From the NCBI GenBank assembly GCA_036170915.1, contig JAVHQC010000020.1, positions 1 to 64,000 on the forward strand: a stretch of 64,000 nt of DNA. The letters run 5' to 3'. Position numbers and translations under genes: made by a program. The stretch comes from Cyanobacteria bacterium auto_48_18 (lineage in GTDB: Bacteria; Cyanobacteriota; Vampirovibrionia; Obscuribacterales; Obscuribacteraceae). Positions within the stretch are counted from its first letter, which is position 1. Each line of letters opens with the position of its first letter. Positions 10,524 to 21,547 of the stretch are shown piece after piece. The notes under the pieces are model-generated. The model was given only the letters and a program-made list of their open reading frames with translations. It did no database searches and was not told where the DNA came from.

Positions 10524-11411
10524 TTGTGGAGTTTGATCATGACCTTAAATAAACAGACCCCTGGTAATTCTTCCAATGTGAGAAAGCTTTTCAGTGTGGC
10601 CATTGCATTTGTGGCGCCTCTGGCACTGAGCATTCCCGTGCAGGCCCAAGAAGCTGCTGACAAGCCGCCGGCCGGCTTTAACCGCCCTATGCCTCCGGCG
10701 GGCAGTGTAGAAACTGCAGATTCTGATGAGATGTTTTCTGCGCGGGGCCCCAATTTTGCAATGGCCTTACCACCAGGGGGCCCGAAGATGGATGGCATGA
10801 TGGATGCTGCCGGAATTGATATGGGCGCGCGGTTTCTAAAAGGTGATGTGGCAGTCAGCGACGCTCAATACGAAAAATTGCACAGCTTGCGCAGCGAGTT
10901 TATGGATAAATTTGGTCCAAAACTGGTGGAGTTGATGGGCCTCAGGCGCCGTCTTAAAGATGCTCTGGTGAGCGAAACAATCGACAGCTCTCAAGTTAGT
11001 GATTTGAGGAGCAAAATGATGCAAGCCGGCAAAGAAATGGCCGATTTGAAAATCGACAACGAAATTGCGGTGATGAATGTCTATACCCCAGAACAACGTA
11101 AGCATCTGCATATGGCTATGCTCAAATGCCCAGCATTAAATGGCGAAATGGGCGGCATGGGCGGTTTTGGTAAAATGCGAGGCATGTATGGCCCTGGTGG
11201 ACCAGGCATGCGAGGCCATCATCGTCATGGTGGGCAAGGCATGCATCGCGGCATGGGTGGAAAGACTGGGCAAAGTATGGCCCAATGCCCCATGGGCAAA
11301 GAATGTGGGGACGGGCCCAAGCATGGTGGTTGGCAGCCGAAAGACGGTGACCGTCAGGCTGGCACAGATAGACCTAAGCGTGGCGGCTGGCAACCCAAAG
11401 CAGAGAAGTAA
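10524..11411 (+). CDS. Spy/CpxP/ZraP-like periplasmic protein (start probably the ATG at 10539 or later)
   Basis: Signal peptide (…PVQA-Q); LTxxQ-like motifs VSDAQ and YTPEQR flanking a helical hairpin; G/M/H-rich tail. Confidence 0.75.
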   Translation: MWSLIMTLNKQTPGNSSNVRKLFSVAIAFVAPLALSIPVQAQEAADKPPAGFNRPMPPAGSVETADSDEMFSARGPNFAMALPPGGPKMDGMMDAAGIDMGARFLKGDVAVSDAQYEKLHSLRSEFMDKFGPKLVELMGLRRRLKDALVSETIDSSQVSDLRSKMMQAGKEMADLKIDNEIAVMNVYTPEQRKHLHMAMLKCPALNGEMGGMGGFGKMRGMYGPGGPGMRGHHRHGGQGMHRGMGGKTGQSMAQCPMGKECGDGPKHGGWQPKDGDRQAGTDRPKRGGWQPKAEK

Positions 11412-11423
11412 CCTTGAAAATCG

Positions 11424-12443
11424 ATGAAGTCGAGCACCATTAAAGCTTTGTCTCTGGCCGTGGCCGCTATTGTTTTTTCTGCCGACGCAGCATTTGCTGA
11501 CGCCGAGTCAGAAAAAGTTGAAGCTGCTGTGCGCAAGGCCCGCGTGGTAAGTTCGCACTATCCGCTGCATGCTGTAATTTCTGGCCAGGAGGCGACGATT
11601 TTAACTCGTCGCCATCCTAAGGCCACCGATGATGATCTTCGCATCGATTCTGTTTTGATCACCAAGGCCGTTGTCGATTCGTTCACCCCAGCCATCAGCA
11701 GGGTGAAAGTGCTTTTTCGTGACGAAGATGCGAGCAGTGGTAAGGCGGTGGAACTCACTGCCGATGACATTAAAGAGTATGGCAGCGGTTCCATGGATGC
11801 CAAAAAGTTTCTCGCCACTATAGCCGTCACCGAGGTTGGTGGCGACGAAGAACTGAAGCAAAGTAAATTGGCCGCTGCCGAGCGCAAATTGATGGTGTCA
11901 GCCGGGCCTTATGATGAAGAACGTTTGCTTCTGATGGATCGCATCAATACTTTACGCCGCAAAGGCACAGGAGTAACACCTTTTGAAGTGATGTTCGCAC
12001 AGATTGAAACGCTGGCCAAAGCGGGCGCACCAGCGCCGGTAAAAGAAGCCATGCGGGTTCTGGCCGACAAATTGGCACAGCAAGAAGATCTGGTGCGCCA
12101 AGCAAGTCGCACAGGCTCGGGCCGTGGTATCAGTGTTGTGAAATCTTCCAGAGTGGCCGACAGCCAGGGCCAAAACGTTGACTTCAACGGTGCACGTGGT
12201 AATAGCGATAATGAGCTTCGGAGCCTGCTTTTGCAGTACGAAAAGAGTCACTTTCGCTTTCGCAACGACCAAAGTAGTTGCGCATATTACCAGAGAAAAA
12301 TGAACGATATTCTCAGCGAGAAAAATAGTGGTGCTTCCACTGAAAGGTTAAAGACTTTACTCACCGGTTTAATTGATGAAATGAACCACGCTGGTAGTGG
12401 GCAAATGGCTGGTCGCTGGGGCAATAAAAAAGGGTCACAGTAA
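11424..12443 (+). CDS. Exported hypothetical protein
   Basis: 339-aa ORF with signal peptide (…AAFA-D); stop overlaps the kinase start (TAATG). Confidence 0.75.
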   Translation: MKSSTIKALSLAVAAIVFSADAAFADAESEKVEAAVRKARVVSSHYPLHAVISGQEATILTRRHPKATDDDLRIDSVLITKAVVDSFTPAISRVKVLFRDEDASSGKAVELTADDIKEYGSGSMDAKKFLATIAVTEVGGDEELKQSKLAAAERKLMVSAGPYDEERLLLMDRINTLRRKGTGVTPFEVMFAQIETLAKAGAPAPVKEAMRVLADKLAQQEDLVRQASRTGSGRGISVVKSSRVADSQGQNVDFNGARGNSDNELRSLLLQYEKSHFRFRNDQSSCAYYQRKMNDILSEKNSGASTERLKTLLTGLIDEMNHAGSGQMAGRWGNKKGSQ

Positions 12444-13981
12444 TGAGCCAAGACCAGGCTTCTAGCAGTATTGAACCTGAGTGTGAGCCTGGATCGCCAA
12501 CTATAAAAGATGTTGGTGTCGACTATAGTCATTCGTCAAATTTAGACCAAGATTTTGAAGCTGCCTTAGATGCAGCTGAACTAAAATTTCGAGAAAATCT
12601 GCATCAAGATCCGCTTATAGGCACCATACTTGATGGCAAATATCATGTGTTGGAAGTGCTTGGCTTTGGCGGCATGTCGGTAGTCTATAAAGCACGACAA
12701 GAGCCTGTAGATAGGCTTGTGGCCATTAAGACCGTCAAGTTCCGTGCTGATGAAAGACCAGATATATGGCGTCGGTTTGAACGCGAAGTACGCACCTTAA
12801 GTAAACTGTCGCATCCTAATGTGGTGACGGTATACGATTGTGTTATTGGCGACAATGGCCAGCCTTATGTGGTAATGGATTACCTCAAGGGAATGGGACT
12901 GGATCAGGCGCTTTTGAATGGCGGCCGCATGTCTTTAGCTCGTGTCTATAGCGTTGCTTCGCAAGTCTGCCTTGGTGTAGCTCATGCCCACAGGCATCAG
13001 GTTATTCATCGCGATATTAAACCAGCCAATATTATGCTTCTAGACTCAAGTATTAGTGGCTCTTGTTCAGTTGAAGGAGAGGTTTATGAACAGGTCAAAG
13101 TAGTTGATTTTGGCCTGGCTAAACTGGGCGAAGATTCTCGCCGGCTGACTCACTCGGGTGAGCTCTGGGGCTCGCCGCCTTATATGAGTCCTGAGCAAAT
13201 TTGCGGACGCGAGTGTGATGGCCGCGCTGATATTTACTCACTGGCCTGCGTCATTTATGAAATGCTCACCGGCCAAGACCCTTTCTGGGGCGCTAATGTT
13301 TATGAGCTTCTGCACTGTCATATGCACGACCGGCCAAAGCCTTTGAGTCAGGCCTGCCCTGAAGGCGATTTTCCATTGCAGCTGGAAAACGTTATTGCCA
13401 GAGCCATGGCTAAAGATCCAGCGGACCGCTACGAGACCATGATTGATTTTAAAGATGCTCTGGAAGAAGCATGTTTGCGGCCTTCGGGTGCTCGGGCCAT
13501 CACGGCTTTTGAACTCCCCCCAGAGCCAGCTGCAGTAAGCAGAAATCAGCCACCAGGAAAAGTAGCCAATAGTGCTTCGCACGTGCTTGCTATCGGTCTT
13601 AGCCTGCTACTGGTGGCTGCTTGCATATTATTTACTGTTAATATGGCGCATAAGATGGATGGTACAAAAGTCACCCGAGTTGTTCCGCCGAAGTACCTTG
13701 AGCCGCTGCCCACCGTTAGTTCAGCGCGGCCGTCTAAGTCGGCAGTTAGTTTGAGCAACAGCGCAAAAAGTCCGCTAAAGTTAAATCAGACAATAGTAAA
13801 GCGCCGAGTAACTGGCGCTGGACGGGATTCACGGAAATTCCAGGTTCGTAGTTTAAGTTCAGGCAAAACAATGAAAAATTCTGCTCCTAATTCAAGCACT
13901 CTGACCGTAGATCAGTCAAAATTCGACATGTTAAGGCGGCTGAAAAGTCCGCTTCTCAGAAATGAGGCCGAAGTCGACTAA
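12443..13981 (+). CDS. Membrane-anchored Hanks-type Ser/Thr protein kinase
   Basis: GFGGMSVVY, VAIK, HRDIKPAN, DFG, YMSPEQ and DIYSL motifs; one TM helix (VLAIGLSLLLVAACILFTV); basic low-complexity tail. Confidence 0.95.
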   Translation: MSQDQASSSIEPECEPGSPTIKDVGVDYSHSSNLDQDFEAALDAAELKFRENLHQDPLIGTILDGKYHVLEVLGFGGMSVVYKARQEPVDRLVAIKTVKFRADERPDIWRRFEREVRTLSKLSHPNVVTVYDCVIGDNGQPYVVMDYLKGMGLDQALLNGGRMSLARVYSVASQVCLGVAHAHRHQVIHRDIKPANIMLLDSSISGSCSVEGEVYEQVKVVDFGLAKLGEDSRRLTHSGELWGSPPYMSPEQICGRECDGRADIYSLACVIYEMLTGQDPFWGANVYELLHCHMHDRPKPLSQACPEGDFPLQLENVIARAMAKDPADRYETMIDFKDALEEACLRPSGARAITAFELPPEPAAVSRNQPPGKVANSASHVLAIGLSLLLVAACILFTVNMAHKMDGTKVTRVVPPKYLEPLPTVSSARPSKSAVSLSNSAKSPLKLNQTIVKRRVTGAGRDSRKFQVRSLSSGKTMKNSAPNSSTLTVDQSKFDMLRRLKSPLLRNEAEVD

Positions 13982-14008
13982 AAAATAGCTGAAGCAAGTA
14001 GTTGAATT

Positions 14009-15925
14009 ATGAAAAGACAAAAACACATCGCTTTATCTCTCCTCTTGTCGCTGACGCCTTTGATTCTGCCTGCAATTGCACCGGCAAATTACGGCTATTG
14101 CCAGTCAGTCAGTGCTGCTTGGTATGACACTGACAATACTTTCCTCGACAGGGGCAAGCAATCCTACAACCAGGGCCAGTTTGACCAGGCCATTACTGAG
14201 CTGACTCAGTCGATCAACATTAACAAAGACCGGGCCGATTCTTATTACTGGCGTGCTCTGGCGTTGCTCGCCATCAAGCAGAACGACCGTGCTCTGGCCG
14301 ACTTAAACGACGCCATACGAAGGGACCCAAACAGCACCAGTTGTTTCCTCAGTCGCGGTTTGTTGTATTCCAACCTTGGCCAGCTTGATAAAGCGATCAA
14401 AGATTTTGACCAGGCTCTGGCCATTGACCCCAATTTAATTGATGCTAAAACCAACCGCGATTTTGCCACTAAAGAATTAGCGAAGCAACAAATTGCTAAG
14501 GTCAATATGGTGCCGCCCACCAGCGAAACTCTCGAAATTGCCAGCTCTACCGTACCCGGCATCGGTCCAAACGTGTTTAGTTCGTCTGGTGTGCCGGCTC
14601 ATGTGGCCCGCACCACCAGTGGTTACGTTAATGGTAAGCCAACTTATGGTGTCTCGACCTCGGGCAGTGGCTCGTCGAAGCCGACTAAAGTTGCCACTGC
14701 TGCTACCAAAACTAACACCGTCACTGTAAGTTCTAATTCTGCTCCTGCTGTCACTTATGTCAGCCCTGTTGCTACCAATAGACCAACTGTTACCACACAA
14801 GACGTGGTTGCCACTGCTGCTGGTATCAATGATCCTAAATGGCTTGCTTTGCAAAAAGAGCTCGATGCTAAGGTGGCTCGTGAGAAAAAAGAAGCTGAGT
14901 TGGCTGCTGTAGAGCGTTCGCGCAATGAGCTCAAAGCACGAGAACTGGCTTTGAAAGAAAAGCAAATGGAAGAGCGTATTGCGCGTCAGCGCAGCAAGCA
15001 TGAAGTGGAAGACGCCAGACGCATGGCCATGGCCAATGTTGCTAAGAACAAACCGGTTACCCAAACAGCCGATGGGCCTGAGGTTAAGGTTGCCGCCGCC
15101 GCTGAAGAAGAATCTGCTCTTGAAGTGACTAATCGCCCAGTGCGCGACAAATGGGCTCTTATTGTTGGTATCAGTAATTTCCAAGATTCCAAACTCAATT
15201 TAAAATATCCGGCTAAAGATGCCAAAGATTTCCACGATTATCTTCTTAAAGAAGGTAACTTTGCTCCAGATCACGTGAAGCTGCTAACCAATGAGCAAGC
15301 TACTCGCGCCAACATTCTTTCTGAGTTGGGGGATAAGTGGCTACCTCGTGTAGCTAACCCGGATGACCTGGTTGTGATTTATATTTCCAGCCACGGTAGT
15401 GCTTCTGATATGGATATCGGCGGCGTAAATTATCTGCTTGCTTATGACAGCCAGGTTGATAGCCTCTACGCTTCTGGTCTGCCTATGCAAGATTTGACTA
15501 GAATTATCAAAGGCCGCGTTCACTCTGACAGGGTTGTGCTGGTTCTGGATGCATGTCATAGCGGCGCTGCTGAAGCTGGTGCAAAGGGATTGTTCCGTCA
15601 GGGAAATGTGGATATCACTGAGATGGCGCAAGGGACTGGACAGTTGGTGATCTCGTCGAGCCAGCCTTCGCAAGTATCATGGGAATCGAAACACTACCAG
15701 AACTCGGTATTTACAAGATGCTTGATCGAGTCATTGAAGAGCAAGGGTAATGCCACCACTCTTGGTGAAGCATTCACTAATATGAAAGATAAAGTTCAAC
15801 AAGAAGTCTTGACCGAACGTGGCGTTTTACAAACACCCGTCTTGAAATCTCGCTGGAAAGGCAATGAGCTGCGCCTGGCCGCACCCCCTATCAGTCCCCG
15901 CCCAGGCTTGAGCGAAACTCCATAG
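14009..15925 (+). CDS. Exported TPR-repeat plus caspase-like (peptidase C14) protein
   Basis: Signal peptide; about 3 TPRs; Ser/Thr-rich linker; coiled coil; KWALIVGIS, SSHG (His) and LDACHSG (Cys). Confidence 0.9.
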   Translation: MKRQKHIALSLLLSLTPLILPAIAPANYGYCQSVSAAWYDTDNTFLDRGKQSYNQGQFDQAITELTQSININKDRADSYYWRALALLAIKQNDRALADLNDAIRRDPNSTSCFLSRGLLYSNLGQLDKAIKDFDQALAIDPNLIDAKTNRDFATKELAKQQIAKVNMVPPTSETLEIASSTVPGIGPNVFSSSGVPAHVARTTSGYVNGKPTYGVSTSGSGSSKPTKVATAATKTNTVTVSSNSAPAVTYVSPVATNRPTVTTQDVVATAAGINDPKWLALQKELDAKVAREKKEAELAAVERSRNELKARELALKEKQMEERIARQRSKHEVEDARRMAMANVAKNKPVTQTADGPEVKVAAAAEEESALEVTNRPVRDKWALIVGISNFQDSKLNLKYPAKDAKDFHDYLLKEGNFAPDHVKLLTNEQATRANILSELGDKWLPRVANPDDLVVIYISSHGSASDMDIGGVNYLLAYDSQVDSLYASGLPMQDLTRIIKGRVHSDRVVLVLDACHSGAAEAGAKGLFRQGNVDITEMAQGTGQLVISSSQPSQVSWESKHYQNSVFTRCLIESLKSKGNATTLGEAFTNMKDKVQQEVLTERGVLQTPVLKSRWKGNELRLAAPPISPRPGLSETP

Positions 15926-16024: not shown

Positions 16025-19000
16025 GTGAGCATGCTCCTTAGCGTTCCTTCAAAACAAGAGATTCTTGCTGCTTGCAAACAAGCGGAAGCAGATCAAAGTC
16101 GCACTGATTTAGGTGAAGGAAAGCTCAGCGAATTGTTGCAGGCGCTTTTAACCGCGCTTGAAACCAGTGCCACAGAAAAGCAGGCGGTGAAAGTTCTGCA
16201 TGAGCTTGCTGCCGAGCTGGCCAAAAATGAGTCGCATGAAAATCAGGCGCTTGTCATTAAAAGTGTTGGCTTACCCTCGCTGCCTGACCCAATCAGGTTA
16301 TTTTTGACCCCTGCTGTTTTTTCACCTGAGTTATGGGGACGCACTTTCGCTGAAGGATTACTAAAAAGCAAAGAACAGTTTCACGGCAAGAAAATTGTTG
16401 AAGTGGGCACAGGCTCAGGCTGGATAAGCTTGTTGCTGCTTTTCGTCACCAATGTCAAAGAAGTGTTGGGTCTGGATTTAAATCCTGTAGCTATAGTGAT
16501 GGCCAAACTCAACACATGGCTCAATGGCACCACCATGGACGGTGCTTATGTTTTGAGCATGGCCGGCGACCCGATCATCAAAGCTTTTCAGATGGAAGTG
16601 TCAGATTTGCTTGCAGCACCCCTTGCTGCCGGCCAAACTTTTGACCATGTGATTGGTTGCATACCGCAGGTGTTGCATCCCAATCCGGTGAAGCACGATG
16701 GCGATTCTGATTCAGAAAGTGCGGAAGGGCTATCTGAAAAAGATCTGTACGACCTGAGTAATTATTGTTTTGAGCAGGGCATTCTCGAAGACAGATTTGG
16801 CTTGCCTCTTATCGCTCGTGCCCTTGAGCAAGCACAGTTGTGCCTTAATGCCGGTGGCCGAGTAACTTTGGTTTTAGGTGGAAGGCCAGGGCGCCAAGCC
16901 ATTGAAAGTATGTTCGACCGTCGCGGTTATGAAAGTAAACTTGTCTGGATGCGCCGCATTCAACAAGCAGACGACACCGATCTCGCTTCTCTGGTGGAGC
17001 TTGAAGGTGAACACGGCATTCGTTTTCACTTCTTCATGTCTCGAGATTCAGAACTATCTATTTCTGCCGCAACAGCAGTCAAGCTTCTTGCTGCAGGTAG
17101 ACAGGTATTTCATGACCTGCTGGTTTACCAGGCAGACACCCGCTTCGAGCCTGAAATATTTGCATTTGTGCGTAACTTAAATCAGATGAAGCTGGAAAGC
17201 TTGCGCAAGGAGCTCGACTTTTCACGCTTGGGCCACGAGAAAATAAGCTTTTTAAGTCGCCTTTCACGCTCGCTTCTTGATGTTAAAACTATTCCATACC
17301 CTCATGAGCGCGGCGACATCAGTTTGCGGGTTGTCCTGGCTCGGTATCTTAAGGGCTTTTGCTACTATCCCGTTAGCGCCGATCAACTTTTTGTGGCACC
17401 GTCGCGCGCTGAACTGATTGATATCATTTTGCGCATGGCCACCACCAAAGGCGATCGAATTTTACTCTCGTCGTCTGTGCAAGATGTATATGCTCAAGTG
17501 GCAGCTGATAACGGTCTTGATCTGACTGTCGGTAACGATGACCTGACTGAGTTAAATGATCTCGACGATTTGACAGCACCAAGGGTGGTGCTAATTTCAC
17601 CCAGGCAATTGCTCAGCGCCTCACCGATTAACTTTAAAGCGATTTGTCAGCAGGCGCGCCTGCATCCTGATCGCTGGTATATCATCGATGATTCTGAAAG
17701 CTTCAGTATCAGCTCAGAGCTAGGTTCTAATATGACCTTGCGTTTCGCAGGGCAAGAGCCGCTGCCCGAAAATCTAGTGCTTTTGTATGGACTGATCAAA
17801 AACACAATCAGCCGCGATCTAGAATTGACTTTCCTGATAAACGCGCCGTCAGCCTGGCTCGAAGGGCTCGATATTGGTTGCGAACTTTCTTACTCGCGTA
17901 TTGCCTATCCCACCCAGTTGCTTTATCAGTGGCTGTTTGAAGATCTTATGACATTCCCTTTTCCTGATCAGGTTATAGAGAACGAATTTAGTCACTCGCA
18001 GGTTAATTCCGCTCTCAGCCCCCTTTTGCAGAAGCTAGCCGCTGACCCAGTTTTTGCACCAAAACCTGTTGATCTAGAAGAGCCAGGTTTGATTCGACTT
18101 GACTATGGCGAATTTGAAGCGGCAGTGCCGGATATTCTGGTAAAAGGTTTATTCAAGGGCTTTCTTGATGAAGAAACCGCTATACTGCCTCAGATTGTTA
18201 GCGAGCGTGTAGCCGCGTACATGAAGTGGACGAGGAAAATTTCGCTGCCAGGCAAACGCATTGTGCTTGCCCAAGGAGTATTTCCACTATTCGGTGCCTT
18301 GATAAAAAGTCTCTCGAAGCGCCTCGGGCGGCCTTGCCTGGTAGCCGTTCCTGATGGCAGTTACGGTCCGCTTTACCCTATGCTTGAGTATTACGGCGCT
18401 AGAGTTGTTGAAATTAAAACCAGCAGCGAACGAGCATATTTGATTTCACCCAAAGACCTGGCGGCGCTGAGCGAAAAACCAGATTTGCTCTGGTTGACTC
18501 AGCCAAATAATCCCAGCGGCATTTTCCTTGACCCTGAGCGATTACGCACAATCATTGAAAGTTGTCACAAACAAGACATCTATGTTTTCTCTGACGAGAT
18601 ATTTTTCTTGTTATCTGACCATCGCCTGGGTAAATGGACACCATCGTCGCTGTCGGCCGGATCGTATGCCACAGGACCTTGCGCCAGTCATATCTTTATG
18701 GCTGACGGCATCGCTAAGAGTTTTGCCGCTGGTGGCATGCGCTGTGGCTTTATGGTGGCGCCGGACGAAGAATGGGCTCAAGAAATTGCTGCATATGTAC
18801 AGCCGCCACCTGCAGCAATTTTGCGTGCCTGGGACGCCCTTTATTCAGCCTTTTTAGAAAAATCGCCGCACCAGATGATGGATGTCGCTCAAGCGTTTTC
18901 TGAAGTGGAGACCTATCTGAATGCTCAGCGCAAAATATTGTCGAATCGCCGTGAAGAGCTTTTACAGTTATTGAAAGCCAAAGGGCTTGATGATGGCTAC

Positions 19001-19237
19001 GATACGCCTTATCGTGGTGGGCTCTTCTTGCTCGCCAAACTAGATAGCCAACATGAGGCCCTGGCCAAGCAAGCTAAACTTTTGACTAACCCCGCGGTCT
19101 GGGCACGTACACCAGATATGGTGCGCATGTGCTTCTGCATTGATGAGGCCGCTTTCCGCGAAACAATGATCAGATTGCAGAAATTTTTAGAGCCGTCAGG
19201 TTCTTTAGGTGAGGAAGGAAACAATGGAAGACATTAA
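16025..19237 (+). CDS. Plant-type methionine S-methyltransferase (MMT-like): SAM-methyltransferase fused to PLP aminotransferase-fold domains
   Basis: EVGTGSGWIS, GCIPQVLHPNP, LSNYC…EDRFGLPLIARA, GGRPG and QADDTDLASLVELE match plant MMT motifs as I recall them; C-terminal PNNPSG, SDEIF and GIAKSFAAGGMRCG. Confidence 0.85.
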   Translation: MSMLLSVPSKQEILAACKQAEADQSRTDLGEGKLSELLQALLTALETSATEKQAVKVLHELAAELAKNESHENQALVIKSVGLPSLPDPIRLFLTPAVFSPELWGRTFAEGLLKSKEQFHGKKIVEVGTGSGWISLLLLFVTNVKEVLGLDLNPVAIVMAKLNTWLNGTTMDGAYVLSMAGDPIIKAFQMEVSDLLAAPLAAGQTFDHVIGCIPQVLHPNPVKHDGDSDSESAEGLSEKDLYDLSNYCFEQGILEDRFGLPLIARALEQAQLCLNAGGRVTLVLGGRPGRQAIESMFDRRGYESKLVWMRRIQQADDTDLASLVELEGEHGIRFHFFMSRDSELSISAATAVKLLAAGRQVFHDLLVYQADTRFEPEIFAFVRNLNQMKLESLRKELDFSRLGHEKISFLSRLSRSLLDVKTIPYPHERGDISLRVVLARYLKGFCYYPVSADQLFVAPSRAELIDIILRMATTKGDRILLSSSVQDVYAQVAADNGLDLTVGNDDLTELNDLDDLTAPRVVLISPRQLLSASPINFKAICQQARLHPDRWYIIDDSESFSISSELGSNMTLRFAGQEPLPENLVLLYGLIKNTISRDLELTFLINAPSAWLEGLDIGCELSYSRIAYPTQLLYQWLFEDLMTFPFPDQVIENEFSHSQVNSALSPLLQKLAADPVFAPKPVDLEEPGLIRLDYGEFEAAVPDILVKGLFKGFLDEETAILPQIVSERVAAYMKWTRKISLPGKRIVLAQGVFPLFGALIKSLSKRLGRPCLVAVPDGSYGPLYPMLEYYGARVVEIKTSSERAYLISPKDLAALSEKPDLLWLTQPNNPSGIFLDPERLRTIIESCHKQDIYVFSDEIFFLLSDHRLGKWTPSSLSAGSYATGPCASHIFMADGIAKSFAAGGMRCGFMVAPDEEWAQEIAAYVQPPPAAILRAWDALYSAFLEKSPHQMMDVAQAFSEVETYLNAQRKILSNRREELLQLLKAKGLDDGYDTPYRGGLFLLAKLDSQHEALAKQAKLLTNPAVWARTPDMVRMCFCIDEAAFRETMIRLQKFLEPSGSLGEEGNNGRH

Positions 19238-20129
19238 CGCTTTACCTGATTTATCAATGCGTGGCAAAAATTGCCTCATTACCGGGGCAACCTCAGGCAT
19301 TGGTAAGGTTACGGCAATGGAGCTGGCAGCTAAAGGCGCCAACATCATTATTGTCGGACGCAGCGTAGAAAAATGTGAGTCGACATTAGCGGAGATTGAA
19401 GCGAAGACAAGCAACGTCAATCTAGATTATTTAATTGCCGATCTTTCAGACTTTAATTCTGTAAAAAACCTGGCTAAAACTTTCACAAATAAATATTCAA
19501 AATTGAGTGTGTTGGTCAATAATGCTGGTGGCATTTTTATGCGCCGCGCTGATACGGCGGACGGCATCGAAATGACCTGGGCTCTCAATCACTTCGGCTA
19601 TTTCTGGCTTACCGGTTACCTGATTGATGTTCTGAAGAATACGACTCCATCTCGAATCATCAACGTGTCGTCAGATGCTCATAAACGCGCCACATTGAAC
19701 GGGCCACCCAATATGCACGATAAAATGCCGATTGGTTATTTGACTTACGCCAACACTAAACTGGCTAATTTGCTTTTTTCTTATCACCTGGCTTACAACA
19801 TCAAGTCAACCGGTGTTACAGTCAATGCCATGCATCCTGGTATTGTTGCCACCGATTTTGGCTCTAGCAATGGCATCATAGGTAAGGCCATTCAGCTGAA
19901 TGCGAAGGTGTTTGGTGTGAAGCCTGAGGTAGGTGCTCGCACTATTATTCAATTAGCTAGTGCTCCCGAACTCTACCAAGTTACCGGAAAATATTTCGTC
20001 AACGGTCGCGAAGTGCTGTCTTCTAAAGCTTCTTATGACACGAAGCTGGGAACGAAGTTCTGGCAGTGGAGTGTTGACGTTTCGCGCAGACATGGCATGG
20101 ATACAAAGCGAATTGAGTTTTTGCGGTAA
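19224..20129 (+). CDS. Short-chain dehydrogenase/reductase (retinol dehydrogenase/WWOX-like)
   Basis: TGATSGIG, NNAG, YANTK and HPG motifs; the ATG at 19224 follows GAGGAAGG and overlaps the MMT-like gene end by 14 nt (ORF track start 19209). Confidence 0.92.
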   Translation: MEDINALPDLSMRGKNCLITGATSGIGKVTAMELAAKGANIIIVGRSVEKCESTLAEIEAKTSNVNLDYLIADLSDFNSVKNLAKTFTNKYSKLSVLVNNAGGIFMRRADTADGIEMTWALNHFGYFWLTGYLIDVLKNTTPSRIINVSSDAHKRATLNGPPNMHDKMPIGYLTYANTKLANLLFSYHLAYNIKSTGVTVNAMHPGIVATDFGSSNGIIGKAIQLNAKVFGVKPEVGARTIIQLASAPELYQVTGKYFVNGREVLSSKASYDTKLGTKFWQWSVDVSRRHGMDTKRIEFLR

Positions 20130-20148: not shown

Positions 20149-20439
20149 CTAAAAGGATTTTTTTCGCAATTCGAAGTTTTTAACCGATTCGAGTACAAAG
20201 TTTTCGAACGTGGGTGCAATTACTTCTTTAACCCAAATTTTTTCTTTAAGATAAATTGACACTTTTCTGTCGACATAGTGTGCCGGCGGTAGCGCTGTTA
20301 CATAGCCTGGAGTGTTGTAGTCTCCAGATTCTATTCCATCGTCAAATTCAAAGGTGCTGACGAACTTTTGGAGAATTTGGTTTTTTTCACTAGTCATAAG
20401 TAATTCGCGGTGAGTGATTTTTACGCCTATGTTATTCAA
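20149..20439 (-). CDS. Small hypothetical protein downstream of the Fic gene
   Basis: AT-rich 96-aa ORF; its TTG start overlaps the Fic stop; alternative ATG at 20397. Confidence 0.4.
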   Translation of the reverse strand: MNNIGVKITHRELLMTSEKNQILQKFVSTFEFDDGIESGDYNTPGYVTALPPAHYVDRKVSIYLKEKIWVKEVIAPTFENFVLESVKNFELRKKSF

Positions 20440-21547
20440 CTAGAGAATAGCTTGTGCTTCTTCCCCCAGCAGCATCCTTTTTTAGAATGCCGCGTTCTAC
20501 AAGCTCGGATATATCACGATGAGCAGTATCTTGAGAGCATTTAGCTAGCTTTGCCCATTTTGATGACGTTAGCTTGCCTTCAAATTTATCAAGCAGAATG
20601 TTTAGCACTTTGCTCTGGCGTTCGTTTAGTGCTACCTGTGCAAAAGAGCTCCAGAAGTGCGCTCTTTTTAGTACCGCTGTTTGAATGGAGTGTGCACCTT
20701 CTATGGCTCGTCCCAAGCAGGCGATATACCATTCCAACCATCTTGTAATATCGCTTGACCCTTTTTGGGTTTGTTCGAGAATTTCGTAATATGCTTTTCG
20801 CTCGGTTCTAATTTGCGCTGACATACTATAGAACCGCTGGTTTGTTTTTTCAGAGCGAGCAAGGGCAAGATCTGCTATGGCTCTTGCAATTCTGCCATTT
20901 CCGTCGTCAAATGGATGTATGGTGACAAACCAGAGGTGTGCAATTCCTGATTTAAGGACCGGATCTATTTCGCGGCTATTCTCAAACCATTCCAGAAATG
21001 AAATCATTTCTTTTTCTAGTGACTCCGCCGGCGGTGCCTGAAAATGAACTCGCTCCTTGCCGATTGCACCTGATACAACCTGAATTGGCTGATTGCCTTT
21101 GCGCCACCGTCCAACATCGATTTGAAACATCCCGCTCCAGCCTGTGGGGAAAAGCGATGCGTGCCAGCCAAAGAGCCTGGGGGCAGTCAGGGGTTTATCA
21201 AAATTTTGCGTAGCATCAAGTAGCATTTCCACGACTCCATCAATCTGACGATCAGCTGGTTTGAGTGCAGCAATTTCTACACCTAAGCGCCTGGCTAAAG
21301 AAGACCGAACCAATTCGGCATTTAGAATTTCGCCTTCTATTTCGCTAGTTGTTAAAACGTCTTGGGTAAGTGTGTCGAGGTTGACCTCCTGCCTTAAAGG
21401 AAAGCCAAGTGATTCCATGCGACCTATGAGGCGTCCTTGTTCGTGTCGAACTGCTGCCAGCGGCTCTGTAACTGAGTCGGCCCAGGTAAAGTTGGTCCAA
21501 TTTTTTCGTTGGTAGATGTACAAAATAGCTAAATCTCCGCAGATCAT
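20432..21547 (-). CDS. Fic family protein (DUF4172 + Fic + C-terminal wHTH); true start probably the TTG at 21523
   Basis: YIYQRKNWTNFTW N-terminus; TSEIEG inhibitory motif; canonical HPFDDGNGRIAR; C-terminal CSQDTAHRDISELVERGIL HTH. Confidence 0.93.
   Translation of the reverse strand: MICGDLAILYIYQRKNWTNFTWADSVTEPLAAVRHEQGRLIGRMESLGFPLRQEVNLDTLTQDVLTTSEIEGEILNAELVRSSLARRLGVEIAALKPADRQIDGVVEMLLDATQNFDKPLTAPRLFGWHASLFPTGWSGMFQIDVGRWRKGNQPIQVVSGAIGKERVHFQAPPAESLEKEMISFLEWFENSREIDPVLKSGIAHLWFVTIHPFDDGNGRIARAIADLALARSEKTNQRFYSMSAQIRTERKAYYEILEQTQKGSSDITRWLEWYIACLGRAIEGAHSIQTAVLKRAHFWSSFAQVALNERQSKVLNILLDKFEGKLTSSKWAKLAKCSQDTAHRDISELVERGILKKDAAGGRSTSYSLVE

Follow-up and report, generated by a model that had tools for sequence, protein, structure and literature searches.

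An Obscuribacterales methionine S-methyltransferase of plant type keeps a predicted PLP site that sampled plants have lost

Introduction

Plant methionine S-methyltransferase (MMT; EC 2.1.1.12) is placed in Group III of its family in PMC9135737, and the available text of that paper also describes plant-like MMT of the same architecture in Deltaproteobacteria and Oligoflexia, for example in Pseudobacteriovorax antillogorgiicola. MmtN of Group I (Roseovarius indicus; PDB 7VVV/7VVW/7VVX) is a homologous methyltransferase, with the same SAM contacts and gate Tyr, that stands alone, its 305 aa comprising no PLP half. SAM is contacted in MmtN by Asp69, Ser101/Leu102 and Cys121, and Tyr160 acts as a gate (PMC9135737, available text). 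In the literature accessible to us, no role is assigned to the 700-residue tail of plant MMT, and neither MMT of Obscuribacterales or Melainabacteria nor the PLP residues of long MMTs are reported on; older plant papers may treat the C-terminal domain. The accessible part of PMC9135737 makes no mention of Melainabacteria and does not discuss PLP residues.

Here we describe a gene from a window of 64,000 nucleotides, the whole stretch of DNA that was analysed, whose host belongs to the Obscuribacterales, non-photosynthetic relatives of cyanobacteria. Sequence and layout put it with the Group III, plant-like MMTs, a kind already known from other bacteria; what differs is the host order, in which the gene is near-core (P. 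antillogorgiicola was compared by description only). An earlier note had read it as a full-length plant-type enzyme with an N-terminal SAM methyltransferase and two PLP-fold regions, and had mentioned that long forms are reported in a few bacteria. All of this stands. The note had missed that the vitamin-B6 (PLP) half is intact here, as judged from its residues, and decayed in the sampled plants.

Results

A full-length Group III gene in Obscuribacterales

16025..19237, + strand: Group III (plant-like) methionine S-methyltransferase gene; 1070 aa, GTG start
16025..16285, + strand: N-terminal helical extension, aa 1–87; helices in the AlphaFold model, poorly conserved
16286..17140, + strand: MmtN-like SAM methyltransferase domain, aa 88–372; MmtN match, conserved residues
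17141..18004, + strand: first PLP-fold unit, aa 373–660, large domain only; HHalign to second unit, structure search, conservation
18005..19198, + strand: second, complete fold-type I PLP unit, aa 661–1058; PF00155 E 4.4e-27, structure search
18716..18718, + strand: codon of Lys898, predicted Schiff-base lysine; aligned to the PLP lysine of solved aminotransferases

Translation of 16025..19237 gives an open frame without internal stop, encoding a chain of about 115 kDa in which an MmtN-like methyltransferase is followed by an aminotransferase-fold region. Its start is shared with close relatives (MSKLLSVP/VSKLLSIP in the N-terminus comparison), and the AlphaFold model of the 1070-aa protein has a pLDDT of 91.3 and a pTM of 0.88. 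GC3 of the gene (0.47) is similar to that of its neighbours, a scan for promoters and terminators stayed at chance level, and no NCBIfam family among the best 25 matches listed exceeded its cut-off. Long MMT is found in 73 of 107 Obscuribacterales genomes; of 400 further genomes sampled from the phylum, only 4 gave a match.

Likeness to plant MMT extends far beyond generic SAM-binding motifs. Residues 37–1049 align end to end with Selaginella MMT (XP_024516277.1; P0293) at 26% identity (E 2e-87), and the methyltransferase part is 35–42% identical to 120 land-plant proteins. The plant enzyme (Group III in PMC9135737, as far as its text was available) is alike in length, in its three-part layout and in invariant methyltransferase residues. 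The protein resembles plant MMT far more closely than it resembles MmtN (the trees held long forms only, without Group I/II sequences), and identity to other bacterial long forms is 27–36%. The top ESM Atlas clusters are streptophyte MMT at 0.99, which we take as a lead only. Four plant motifs that the earlier note regarded as matched are indeed all there and in order, but their letters are not identical: GCIPQVLHPNP here versus GCIPQILNPNP, the commonest plant form; EDRFGLPLIARA versus EDQFGLGLIARA; GGRPGR versus GGRPGQ; and QADDTDLASLVELE versus QAADTDISALVEIE.

The methyltransferase domain

The domain matches MmtN 7VVV with E 2.5e-7 as a single sequence and E 2.1e-23 as a profile. Its characteristic residues are E126-x-G128-x-G130-x-G132, D151, S193/L195, C212-IPQ, S245-N-Y247, E255-D256, R287-P288, Q314, D317-T318 and E327, and invariant methyltransferase residues are common to the Obscuribacterales protein and 122 streptophyte proteins. 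The GxGxG motif is present (G128/G130/G132), and MmtN D69, S101/L102, C121 and Y160 align to D151, S193/L195, C212 and Y247, with positions counted by hand. The methionine contacts of MmtN, E127, R132 and E250, are replaced by H218, K223 and R333 or H335. These contacts are not defining for Group III, since plants too have Asn at the position of E127; at 335, plants and other bacteria have Glu. MmtN trimer residues P169/R183 correspond to L254 and E268. Identity with Group I MmtN was rejected on these two trimer-pocket positions, on the 1070-aa length and on the lack of a DMSP-gene cluster. The extension preceding the domain (aa 1–87) shows a mean of 17–23% identity to each group outside the order.

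Among the 78 methyltransferase columns common to plants and other bacteria, 68 are kept in Obscuribacterales. The remaining ten differ, including G261P, N283V and E335H, and several of these changes are fixed across the order. Together with the replaced MmtN methionine contacts, they count against synthesis of S-methylmethionine (SMM).

A predicted PLP site kept in bacteria and lost in sampled plants

Folded alone, the first unit gives a fold-type I match (Z 19.5, r.m.s.d. 3.0 Å over 208 residues), and HHalign relates it to the second unit (probability 97.3, E 1.9e-11); direct HHalign of the first unit to E. coli AspC found no match. The second unit is matched with Z 41.2 (r.m.s.d. 3.0 Å over 369 residues). 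Its nearest folds are aspartate/prephenate aminotransferases (5WMK, 1GD9; Z 40–41), and ACC synthases (7DLW, 3PIU) rank behind them (Z 37–38), an order that counts against an SMM lyase. With fold-type I enzymes such as these the second unit has in common the fold, the Lys, the Asp, the Asn-Pro and two Arg, at 16–21% identity, so no function transfers.

The site residues of the second unit are R691-x-D-Y-G-E696, G751, Y780, N829, D857, F860, K898, R906 and R1034. K898, D857, N829-P830, R906 and R1034 align to counterparts in 1DJU/1GD9/1J32, and we take them to be, respectively, the Schiff-base lysine, the pyridine-N aspartate, the Asn-Pro pair and the phosphate and carboxylate arginines. F860 lies at the position of Tyr225, which is Tyr in the solved enzymes and Phe in 265 of 266 bacterial proteins. 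The exchange may alter the chemistry or weaken the site, again counting against an SMM lyase.

Loss in plants is concentrated in the PLP half. When positions kept at ≥90% in all three bacterial groups were compared, plants had lost 10 of 46 such columns in the PLP half and 1 of 65 in the methyltransferase domain. In the PLP half these are S624, R625, R691, G695, E696, G751, Y780, K898, R906 and F1001. K898 is kept in 264/266 bacterial versus 0/122 streptophyte proteins; R906 and R625 are each found in 265/266 versus 8/122, and Y780 in 263/266 versus 2/122. Plant MMT thus differs from the Obscuribacterales protein in a decayed site that has no Lys in any of the 122 streptophyte proteins examined, and its tail was probably, on this pattern, ancestrally a PLP enzyme with one live site. 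Two bacterial exceptions were seen: the site of P0295 decayed independently of plants, and P0125 (Pleurocapsa-type) has Gln in place of Lys898.

Two of the ten residues, S624 and R625, lie in the first unit, in a stretch that chained alignments match to E. coli AspC RANYSNPP, a segment contributed by the other subunit; this fits a pseudo-dimer. A live site is very probably formed by both units as a one-chain pseudo-dimer; by prediction, the residues that would otherwise come from another subunit, Y425 and E620-x-x-Y623-S624-R625, are contributed to it by the first unit. This predicted arrangement with a truncated partner, and Phe for Tyr225, set long MMT apart from fold-type I enzymes. Loss of Y425 in plants was rejected, as 101/122 streptophyte proteins keep it. 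Lys592 of the first unit was rejected as a second live site, being kept in 186/266 bacterial proteins in a unit without small domain.

Two acidic residues bear on the possible substrate. E620, which is E or D in 262/266 bacterial proteins, is presumably at the position of AspAT Arg292 (placed through the motif and two chained alignments); an acid at this position would be suited to a cationic side chain. It is kept in 118/122 streptophyte proteins too, which counts against an SMM lyase. E696, invariant in bacteria, is at what we take to be the position of ACC synthase Glu47, where many aminotransferases have Glu as well. Glu47 of ACC synthase contacts the sulfonium (PMC1282579, available part).

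A candidate SMM synthase/lyase and its rivals

In the mechanism that we propose, the methyltransferase domain would convert methionine and SAM to SMM, SMM would be passed to the protein's own single PLP site, and this site would most likely cleave it at the gamma carbon, releasing dimethyl sulfide. The steps are not equally secure. Methylation of methionine to SMM is likely, and SMM is slightly favoured as the substrate of the PLP site. Roughly half to two thirds of the probability given to SMM as substrate goes to gamma-elimination or cyclisation (to vinylglycine/2-oxobutyrate, to ACC, or with aminocarboxypropyl transfer) and not to transamination; taken whole, the sequence of steps has a somewhat less than even chance. 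An SMM lyase is supported by what befalls SAM, itself a sulfonium, in the fold-type I enzymes that bind it (ACC synthase, GnmY, Mur24, SbzP, CqsA): they expel the sulfide (PMC10491745, available part). No ACC deaminase was found above cut-off in the five of five genomes tried.

19224..20129, + strand: short-chain dehydrogenase (SDR; PRK06197-like, below cut-off); likely ATG overlaps the MMT stop, ORF list gives GTG 19209

The neighbourhood names no partner. MMT is flanked by Ser/Thr kinase, TPR-caspase, SDR, Fic and MOSC genes. Among 48 genomes examined, SDR is the next gene downstream in 28 (27 of the 30 nearest, 1 of the 18 farther), with repeated loci counted once (L065/L066 repeat L042/L043; L071–L074 repeat L040, L041, L044 and L046). 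As an obligatory partner it was rejected, not adjoining MMT in 20/48 (one at a contig end). The sharing of Spy-like, MFS, TPR-caspase and MOSC genes near MMT is equally patchy, which looks like old synteny. No SMM decarboxylase, aminotransferase, aldehyde dehydrogenase or NRPS gene is clustered with MMT at the locus. The earlier note had named mmuM and DMSP-pathway genes as possible companions; no DMSP gene is linked to MMT, and no stand-alone MmuM was found in the host's own genome (86% complete), whose two PF02574 matches are one MetH-sized and one YitJ-type HMT/MTHFR above its cut-off. Bacterial Group III genes are likewise unlinked to DMSP, NRPS and Met-cycle genes (PMC9135737, available text).

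The YitJ-type homocysteine methyltransferase might recycle SMM, an observation against an SMM lyase. It is the basis of an alternative that we regard as unlikely, in which SMM is made and recycled by this enzyme as in the plant SMM cycle, with the PLP site acting on another amino acid (for example, forming Met from its 2-oxo acid). The closest folds, which are ordinary aminotransferases, the MetH and YitJ-type pair and the presence of PF02574 in 102 of 107 genomes of the order agree with this. However, these 102 include genomes without MMT, stand-alone MmuM is missing from the genome as sampled, and use of SMM by YitJ is putative. Moreover, three f44-family genomes (76–94% complete) have MMT and no PF02574 homocysteine methyltransferase, so the SMM cycle cannot explain every MMT carrier.

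Less likely again is that SMM is transaminated and decarboxylated at the PLP site to give DMSP-aldehyde; the protein would then begin DMSP synthesis in two steps. The aminotransferase-like fold would suit it, and a transamination route from SMM was reportedly described in plants by Rhodes in 1997. Against it, Tyr225 is Phe, and the next gene downstream encodes no aldehyde dehydrogenase but an SDR, which is missing there in 20 of the 48 genomes. The unassigned group IV decarboxylase L083 of the genome, rejected as a partner, does not co-vary with MMT (51 genomes with both, 22 with MMT only, 21 with the decarboxylase only, 13 with neither; p 0.51). In addition, three of four strains made no DMSP (PMC9135737, available text).

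About equally doubtful is a changed methyl acceptor in the Obscuribacterales clade, whether another thioether, selenomethionine by preference or the product of the PLP site, but not methionine. The ten altered columns and the long stem branch of the clade would be accounted for in this way, and we know of no assayed member in the Obscuribacterales half of the long-MMT tree. Yet the 68 other shared columns are conserved, as are all signature motifs of the family, and methionine was the acceptor for every one of a set of MmtN proteins that are only about 30% alike (PMC9135737, available text).

It is improbable that the PLP half has already lost catalysis and serves as a regulatory module that binds PLP or SMM, as it appears to do in plants: F860, the missing small domain of the first unit and the changes in P0295 and P0125 point that way, but each of K898, R906, G751, Y780 and R625 is present in 263–265 of 266 bacterial proteins, over a range that reaches down to an overall identity of 27%, and plants have lost them together.

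Were the PLP site of this candidate synthase/lyase to cleave SMM, several hundred bacterial proteins that currently carry a generic aminotransferase annotation would yield dimethyl sulfide or ACC independently of DMSP, and loss of a catalytic half would have given rise to the plant SMM cycle.

Phylogeny and the origin of plant MMT

Obscuribacterales MMT forms a long-branched clade, with a stem of 0.7–1.1 changes per column, and plant MMT forms a separate, distant one. In three trees (unrooted, of long forms only, with two algae from the streptophytes and none from the chlorophytes or red algae) the two stand on opposite sides of a branch with a support of 100. AU tests rejected a grouping of Obscuribacterales with streptophytes (p-AU 2e-5), of Pleurocapsa-type cyanobacteria with streptophytes and of Obscuribacterales with the Pleurocapsa type; these rejections hold for the whole protein, the methyltransferase alone and the PLP half alone. 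Some constrained trees looked under-optimised, and the AU test was repeated with prune-and-regraft trees.

The earlier note had suggested that the gene bears on the origin of plant MMT, a clue that these results contradict. Descent of plant MMT from a Cyanobacteriota line, through the plastid or an Obscuribacterales-like donor, is a matter of ancestry separate from mechanism and is highly improbable: the near-core gene of Obscuribacterales and its presence in an oxygenic cyanobacterium favour it, but the trees and AU tests reject either source, and matches elsewhere in the phylum are as few as given above. The widest reading, which we offer tentatively from sequence comparison and think unlikely in full, is that bacterial long MMTs are one-chain SMM synthase/lyases. 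They would be a so far unrecognised way of turning methionine into dimethyl sulfide, with ACC or dimethyl selenide as alternative products, in Obscuribacterales, in cyanobacteria of the Pleurocapsa type and in many further bacteria. The streptophyte gene would have come from a donor outside the cyanobacteria, and its PLP half would have been switched off before Mesostigma diverged, SMM thus passing from an intermediate to a stable transport metabolite. The long MMT of the oxygenic cyanobacterium (G288) lies in a clearly cyanobacterial context, and an identical protein is named Pleurocapsa sp.

A plant-type MMT with a predicted second active site

The window protein, a long methionine S-methyltransferase (MMT), is of a kind already known: in the passages of PMC9135737 that define it, Group III unites plant MMT with plant-like bacterial MMT of the same dual domain structure. 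The present protein extends Group III to a further bacterial order and carries a predicted additional active site, lost in plants.

16025–19237, + strand: MMT ORF, 1070 aa, GTG start, without internal stop

The full-length plant-type enzyme claimed in the earlier note is confirmed by alignment with Selaginella MMT (P0293) across residues 37–1049 (26% identity, E 2e-87). The four plant-MMT motifs it named are all present in the claimed order, each with a few substitutions. Pfam places a methyltransferase stretch at 120–200 and Aminotran_1_2 at 727–1046, and the short bacterial enzyme MmtN (7VVV) is alignable to residues 99–367. An AlphaFold model from an alignment of 70 sequences is confident (pLDDT 91.3, pTM 0.88). 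Residues 661–1058 form a complete fold-type I PLP unit in this model (Z 41.2 to prephenate aminotransferase, 37–38 to ACC synthases), and residues 375–660, modelled separately, form the large domain of fold-type I (Z 19.5). The two units are homologous (HHalign 97.3%, E 1.9e-11; control of methyltransferase versus second unit, 1.1%).

The predicted PLP site is conserved in bacteria and lost in plants

Residues were compared (METHYLTRANSFERASE) between 266 full-length proteins of the bacterial set (grouped by identity into 108 Obscuribacterales-like, 23 Pleurocapsa-like and 135 others, with bacterial origin mostly assumed) and 122 streptophyte proteins (120 from land plants, the best 120 of 597 matches, and two algae). 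Most partial proteins of <1000 aa, P0089 and the divergent P0296–P0375, save the two algae, were excluded from these counts. Methyltransferase signature residues are invariant across all groups. Of 131 plant-invariant columns the window protein keeps 86, and of the 78 methyltransferase columns common to plants and other bacteria it keeps 68; at the other ten it differs, for example by G261P, N283V and E335H, mostly in ways typical of Obscuribacterales.

Among columns at least 90% conserved in all three bacterial groups, plants lost 1 of the 65 that lie in the methyltransferase but 10 of the 46 that belong to the PLP half. The bacterial proteins, which as kin are not independent, though the set spans about 27% identity, differ from streptophytes at K898 (264/266 versus 0/122), R906 (265/266 versus 8/122), G751 (265/266 versus 2/122), Y780 (263/266 versus 2/122) and R625 (265/266 versus 8/122). 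Because D857 (121 of 122), N829 (96), R1034 (117), Y425 (101) and E620 (118) are largely kept in plants too, the plant PLP half would remain an amino-acid-binding cleft without cofactor. P0295, a 1091-aa long MMT from the opposite tree half to plants, has a decayed PLP Lys motif, probably a second, independent loss of the site.

In fold-type I enzymes each active site is made from two subunits. Conserved first-unit residues (Y425; E620-x-x-Y623-S624-R625) occupy segments normally lent by the partner subunit; this unit has no small domain and its Lys is only partly kept. We infer a putative one-chain pseudo-dimer with one live PLP site. Phe860 replaces Tyr225 in 265/266 bacterial proteins, which would count against a plain aminotransferase, and Glu620, assigned to the AspAT Arg292 place by motif only, would count for a cationic substrate.

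Proposed reaction and alternatives

Synthesis of S-methylmethionine (SMM) by the window protein is likely, judging from its sequence. The protein would methylate Met to SMM, which its own PLP site would then use, the simplest reading of a conserved PLP site fused to the maker of a sulfonium amino acid. Same-fold PLP enzymes that bind SAM expel sulfide from the gamma carbon, according to passages of PMC10491745; from SMM as substrate, dimethyl sulfide would be expelled. Our tentative proposal is cleavage of SMM with release of this product.

The host genome offers no better sink: its MetH and YitJ-type enzyme occur also without MMT, and no ACC deaminase scored above cut-off in any of five genomes searched. 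That the PLP site acts on another substrate while SMM goes through an SMM cycle is unlikely, given the occurrence of these two enzymes without MMT and three small genomes of family f44 of the order (L060–L062, G401–G403; about 2.8 Mb) in which MMT is kept but no methionine synthase of the PF02574 family, whatever its type, turned up. Transamination of SMM towards DMSP at the PLP site is improbable; the unassigned decarboxylase listed next and MMT do not co-vary across 107 genomes of the order.

L083:835–2367, host contig C33: unassigned 510-aa PLP decarboxylase of group IV, LysA-like but scoring under every cut-off

This gene adjoins one for a MinD/CooC-like ATPase and is present in 72 of the 107 genomes. 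In PMC9135737, DMSP was made by one of four strains tested among those with plant-like bacterial MMT, whose gene was not linked to DMSP or Met-cycle genes and whose role was hard to predict; parts of PMC11464771, PMC10491745, PMC1282579, PMC9667741 and PMC11317521 are further related literature.

D151, S193/L195 and C212 of the window protein correspond to the SAM contacts of MmtN, and Y247 corresponds to its gate Tyr; the MmtN Met contacts and trimer pocket do not align with like residues. A changed methyl acceptor is as improbable as transamination towards DMSP. A dead PLP site, set beside the near-constant K898 of bacteria, is very improbable.

Distribution and gene neighbourhood

The closest named loci (64–97% identity) are labelled Ca. 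Obscuribacter, Obscuribacterales, Melainabacteria or uncultured Cyanobacteria. MMT is found in 73/107 Obscuribacterales genomes, 30/39 high-quality genomes and 24/38 genera; this spread, the single copy in the host and a GC3 resembling that of neighbouring genes make it an old resident of the order. The host genome (86% complete) has no PsaA/PsaB match, and together with the named relatives this is the ground for reading the host as Obscuribacterales.

10524–15925, + strand: genes preceding MMT, for a Spy/CpxP-like protein, a 339-aa protein of no assigned family, a Ser/Thr kinase and a TPR-caspase (Peptidase_C14)
20432–21547, − strand: Fic/DUF4172 gene, between SDR and MOSC genes

The upstream run is syntenic in related genera. 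The short-chain dehydrogenase (SDR) gene overlaps MMT and adjoins it in 28 of 48 genomes examined, and is not an obligatory partner. The Fic/DUF4172 gene (lower GC3, 0.40) looks like a recent insertion: at locus L018 a gap of only about 1 kb separates MMT from the MOSC gene that follows it.

In an even sample of 400 other genomes of the phylum, only 4 had MMT matches. One, G288, has photosystem I (PsaA/PsaB, two sets), and a protein identical to its MMT carries the name Pleurocapsa sp.

L069:8437–11643: Group III MMT of G288, immediately following phoH and itself followed by another methyltransferase gene, in a cyanobacterial housekeeping gene context

About 25 proteins are related to it, some named Pleurocapsa or Xenococcus. 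The matches listed for it (120 of 200) include some from Xenococcus, Aliikangiella, Silvanigrellaceae, Bacteroidota, Acidobacteriota and Betaproteobacteria. With the Obscuribacterales and cyanobacterial copies, long MMTs thus extend far beyond Deltaproteobacteria and Oligoflexia, the hosts given by Peng et al. 2022 (PMC9135737). A Pleurocapsa-type oxygenic cyanobacterium is a culturable host in which SMM, DMS or DMSP production could be probed.

Long MMTs of two different clades also occur in three non-photosynthetic genomes of the phylum that lie in other classes than the host (L014, L015, L017; G070, G052, G079), which suggests that Cyanobacteriota acquired the gene on several separate occasions. 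A divergent clade (P0299, P0304, P0313, P0320, P0329, P0330; 1250–2446 aa) has the same methyltransferase and PLP core, 240–900 additional N-terminal residues without Pfam match and, in most, the PLP Lys motif.

Ancestry of plant MMT

Three trees (FastTree, 112 rows; IQ-TREE LG+G4, 47 rows; LG+C20 PMSF, 32 rows), all unrooted and with letter make-up differing among rows, agree in splitting the family into two halves, with Obscuribacterales as a clade on a long stem in one of them. Streptophytes fall in the opposite half among bacterial sequences, separate from the Pleurocapsa-type clade, and branch as expected (Mesostigma, Closterium, land plants). AU tests reject grouping streptophytes with Obscuribacterales (p 2e-5) or with the Pleurocapsa type (p 4e-10), and on regrafted trees do so whether the full-length protein, only the methyltransferase or only the PLP half is used. 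Grouping Obscuribacterales with the Pleurocapsa type was also rejected on regrafted trees, with the largest p there (0.01). The earlier reading of a full-length plant-type MMT in a bacterium stands, but its link to the origin of the plant gene is not supported, since tests and trees separate the two. Acquisition from a different bacterial donor at the streptophyte base would be the simplest reading. The Closterium gene model (P0302) has an apparent transit peptide and another small domain ahead of MMT, and is probably a fused prediction.
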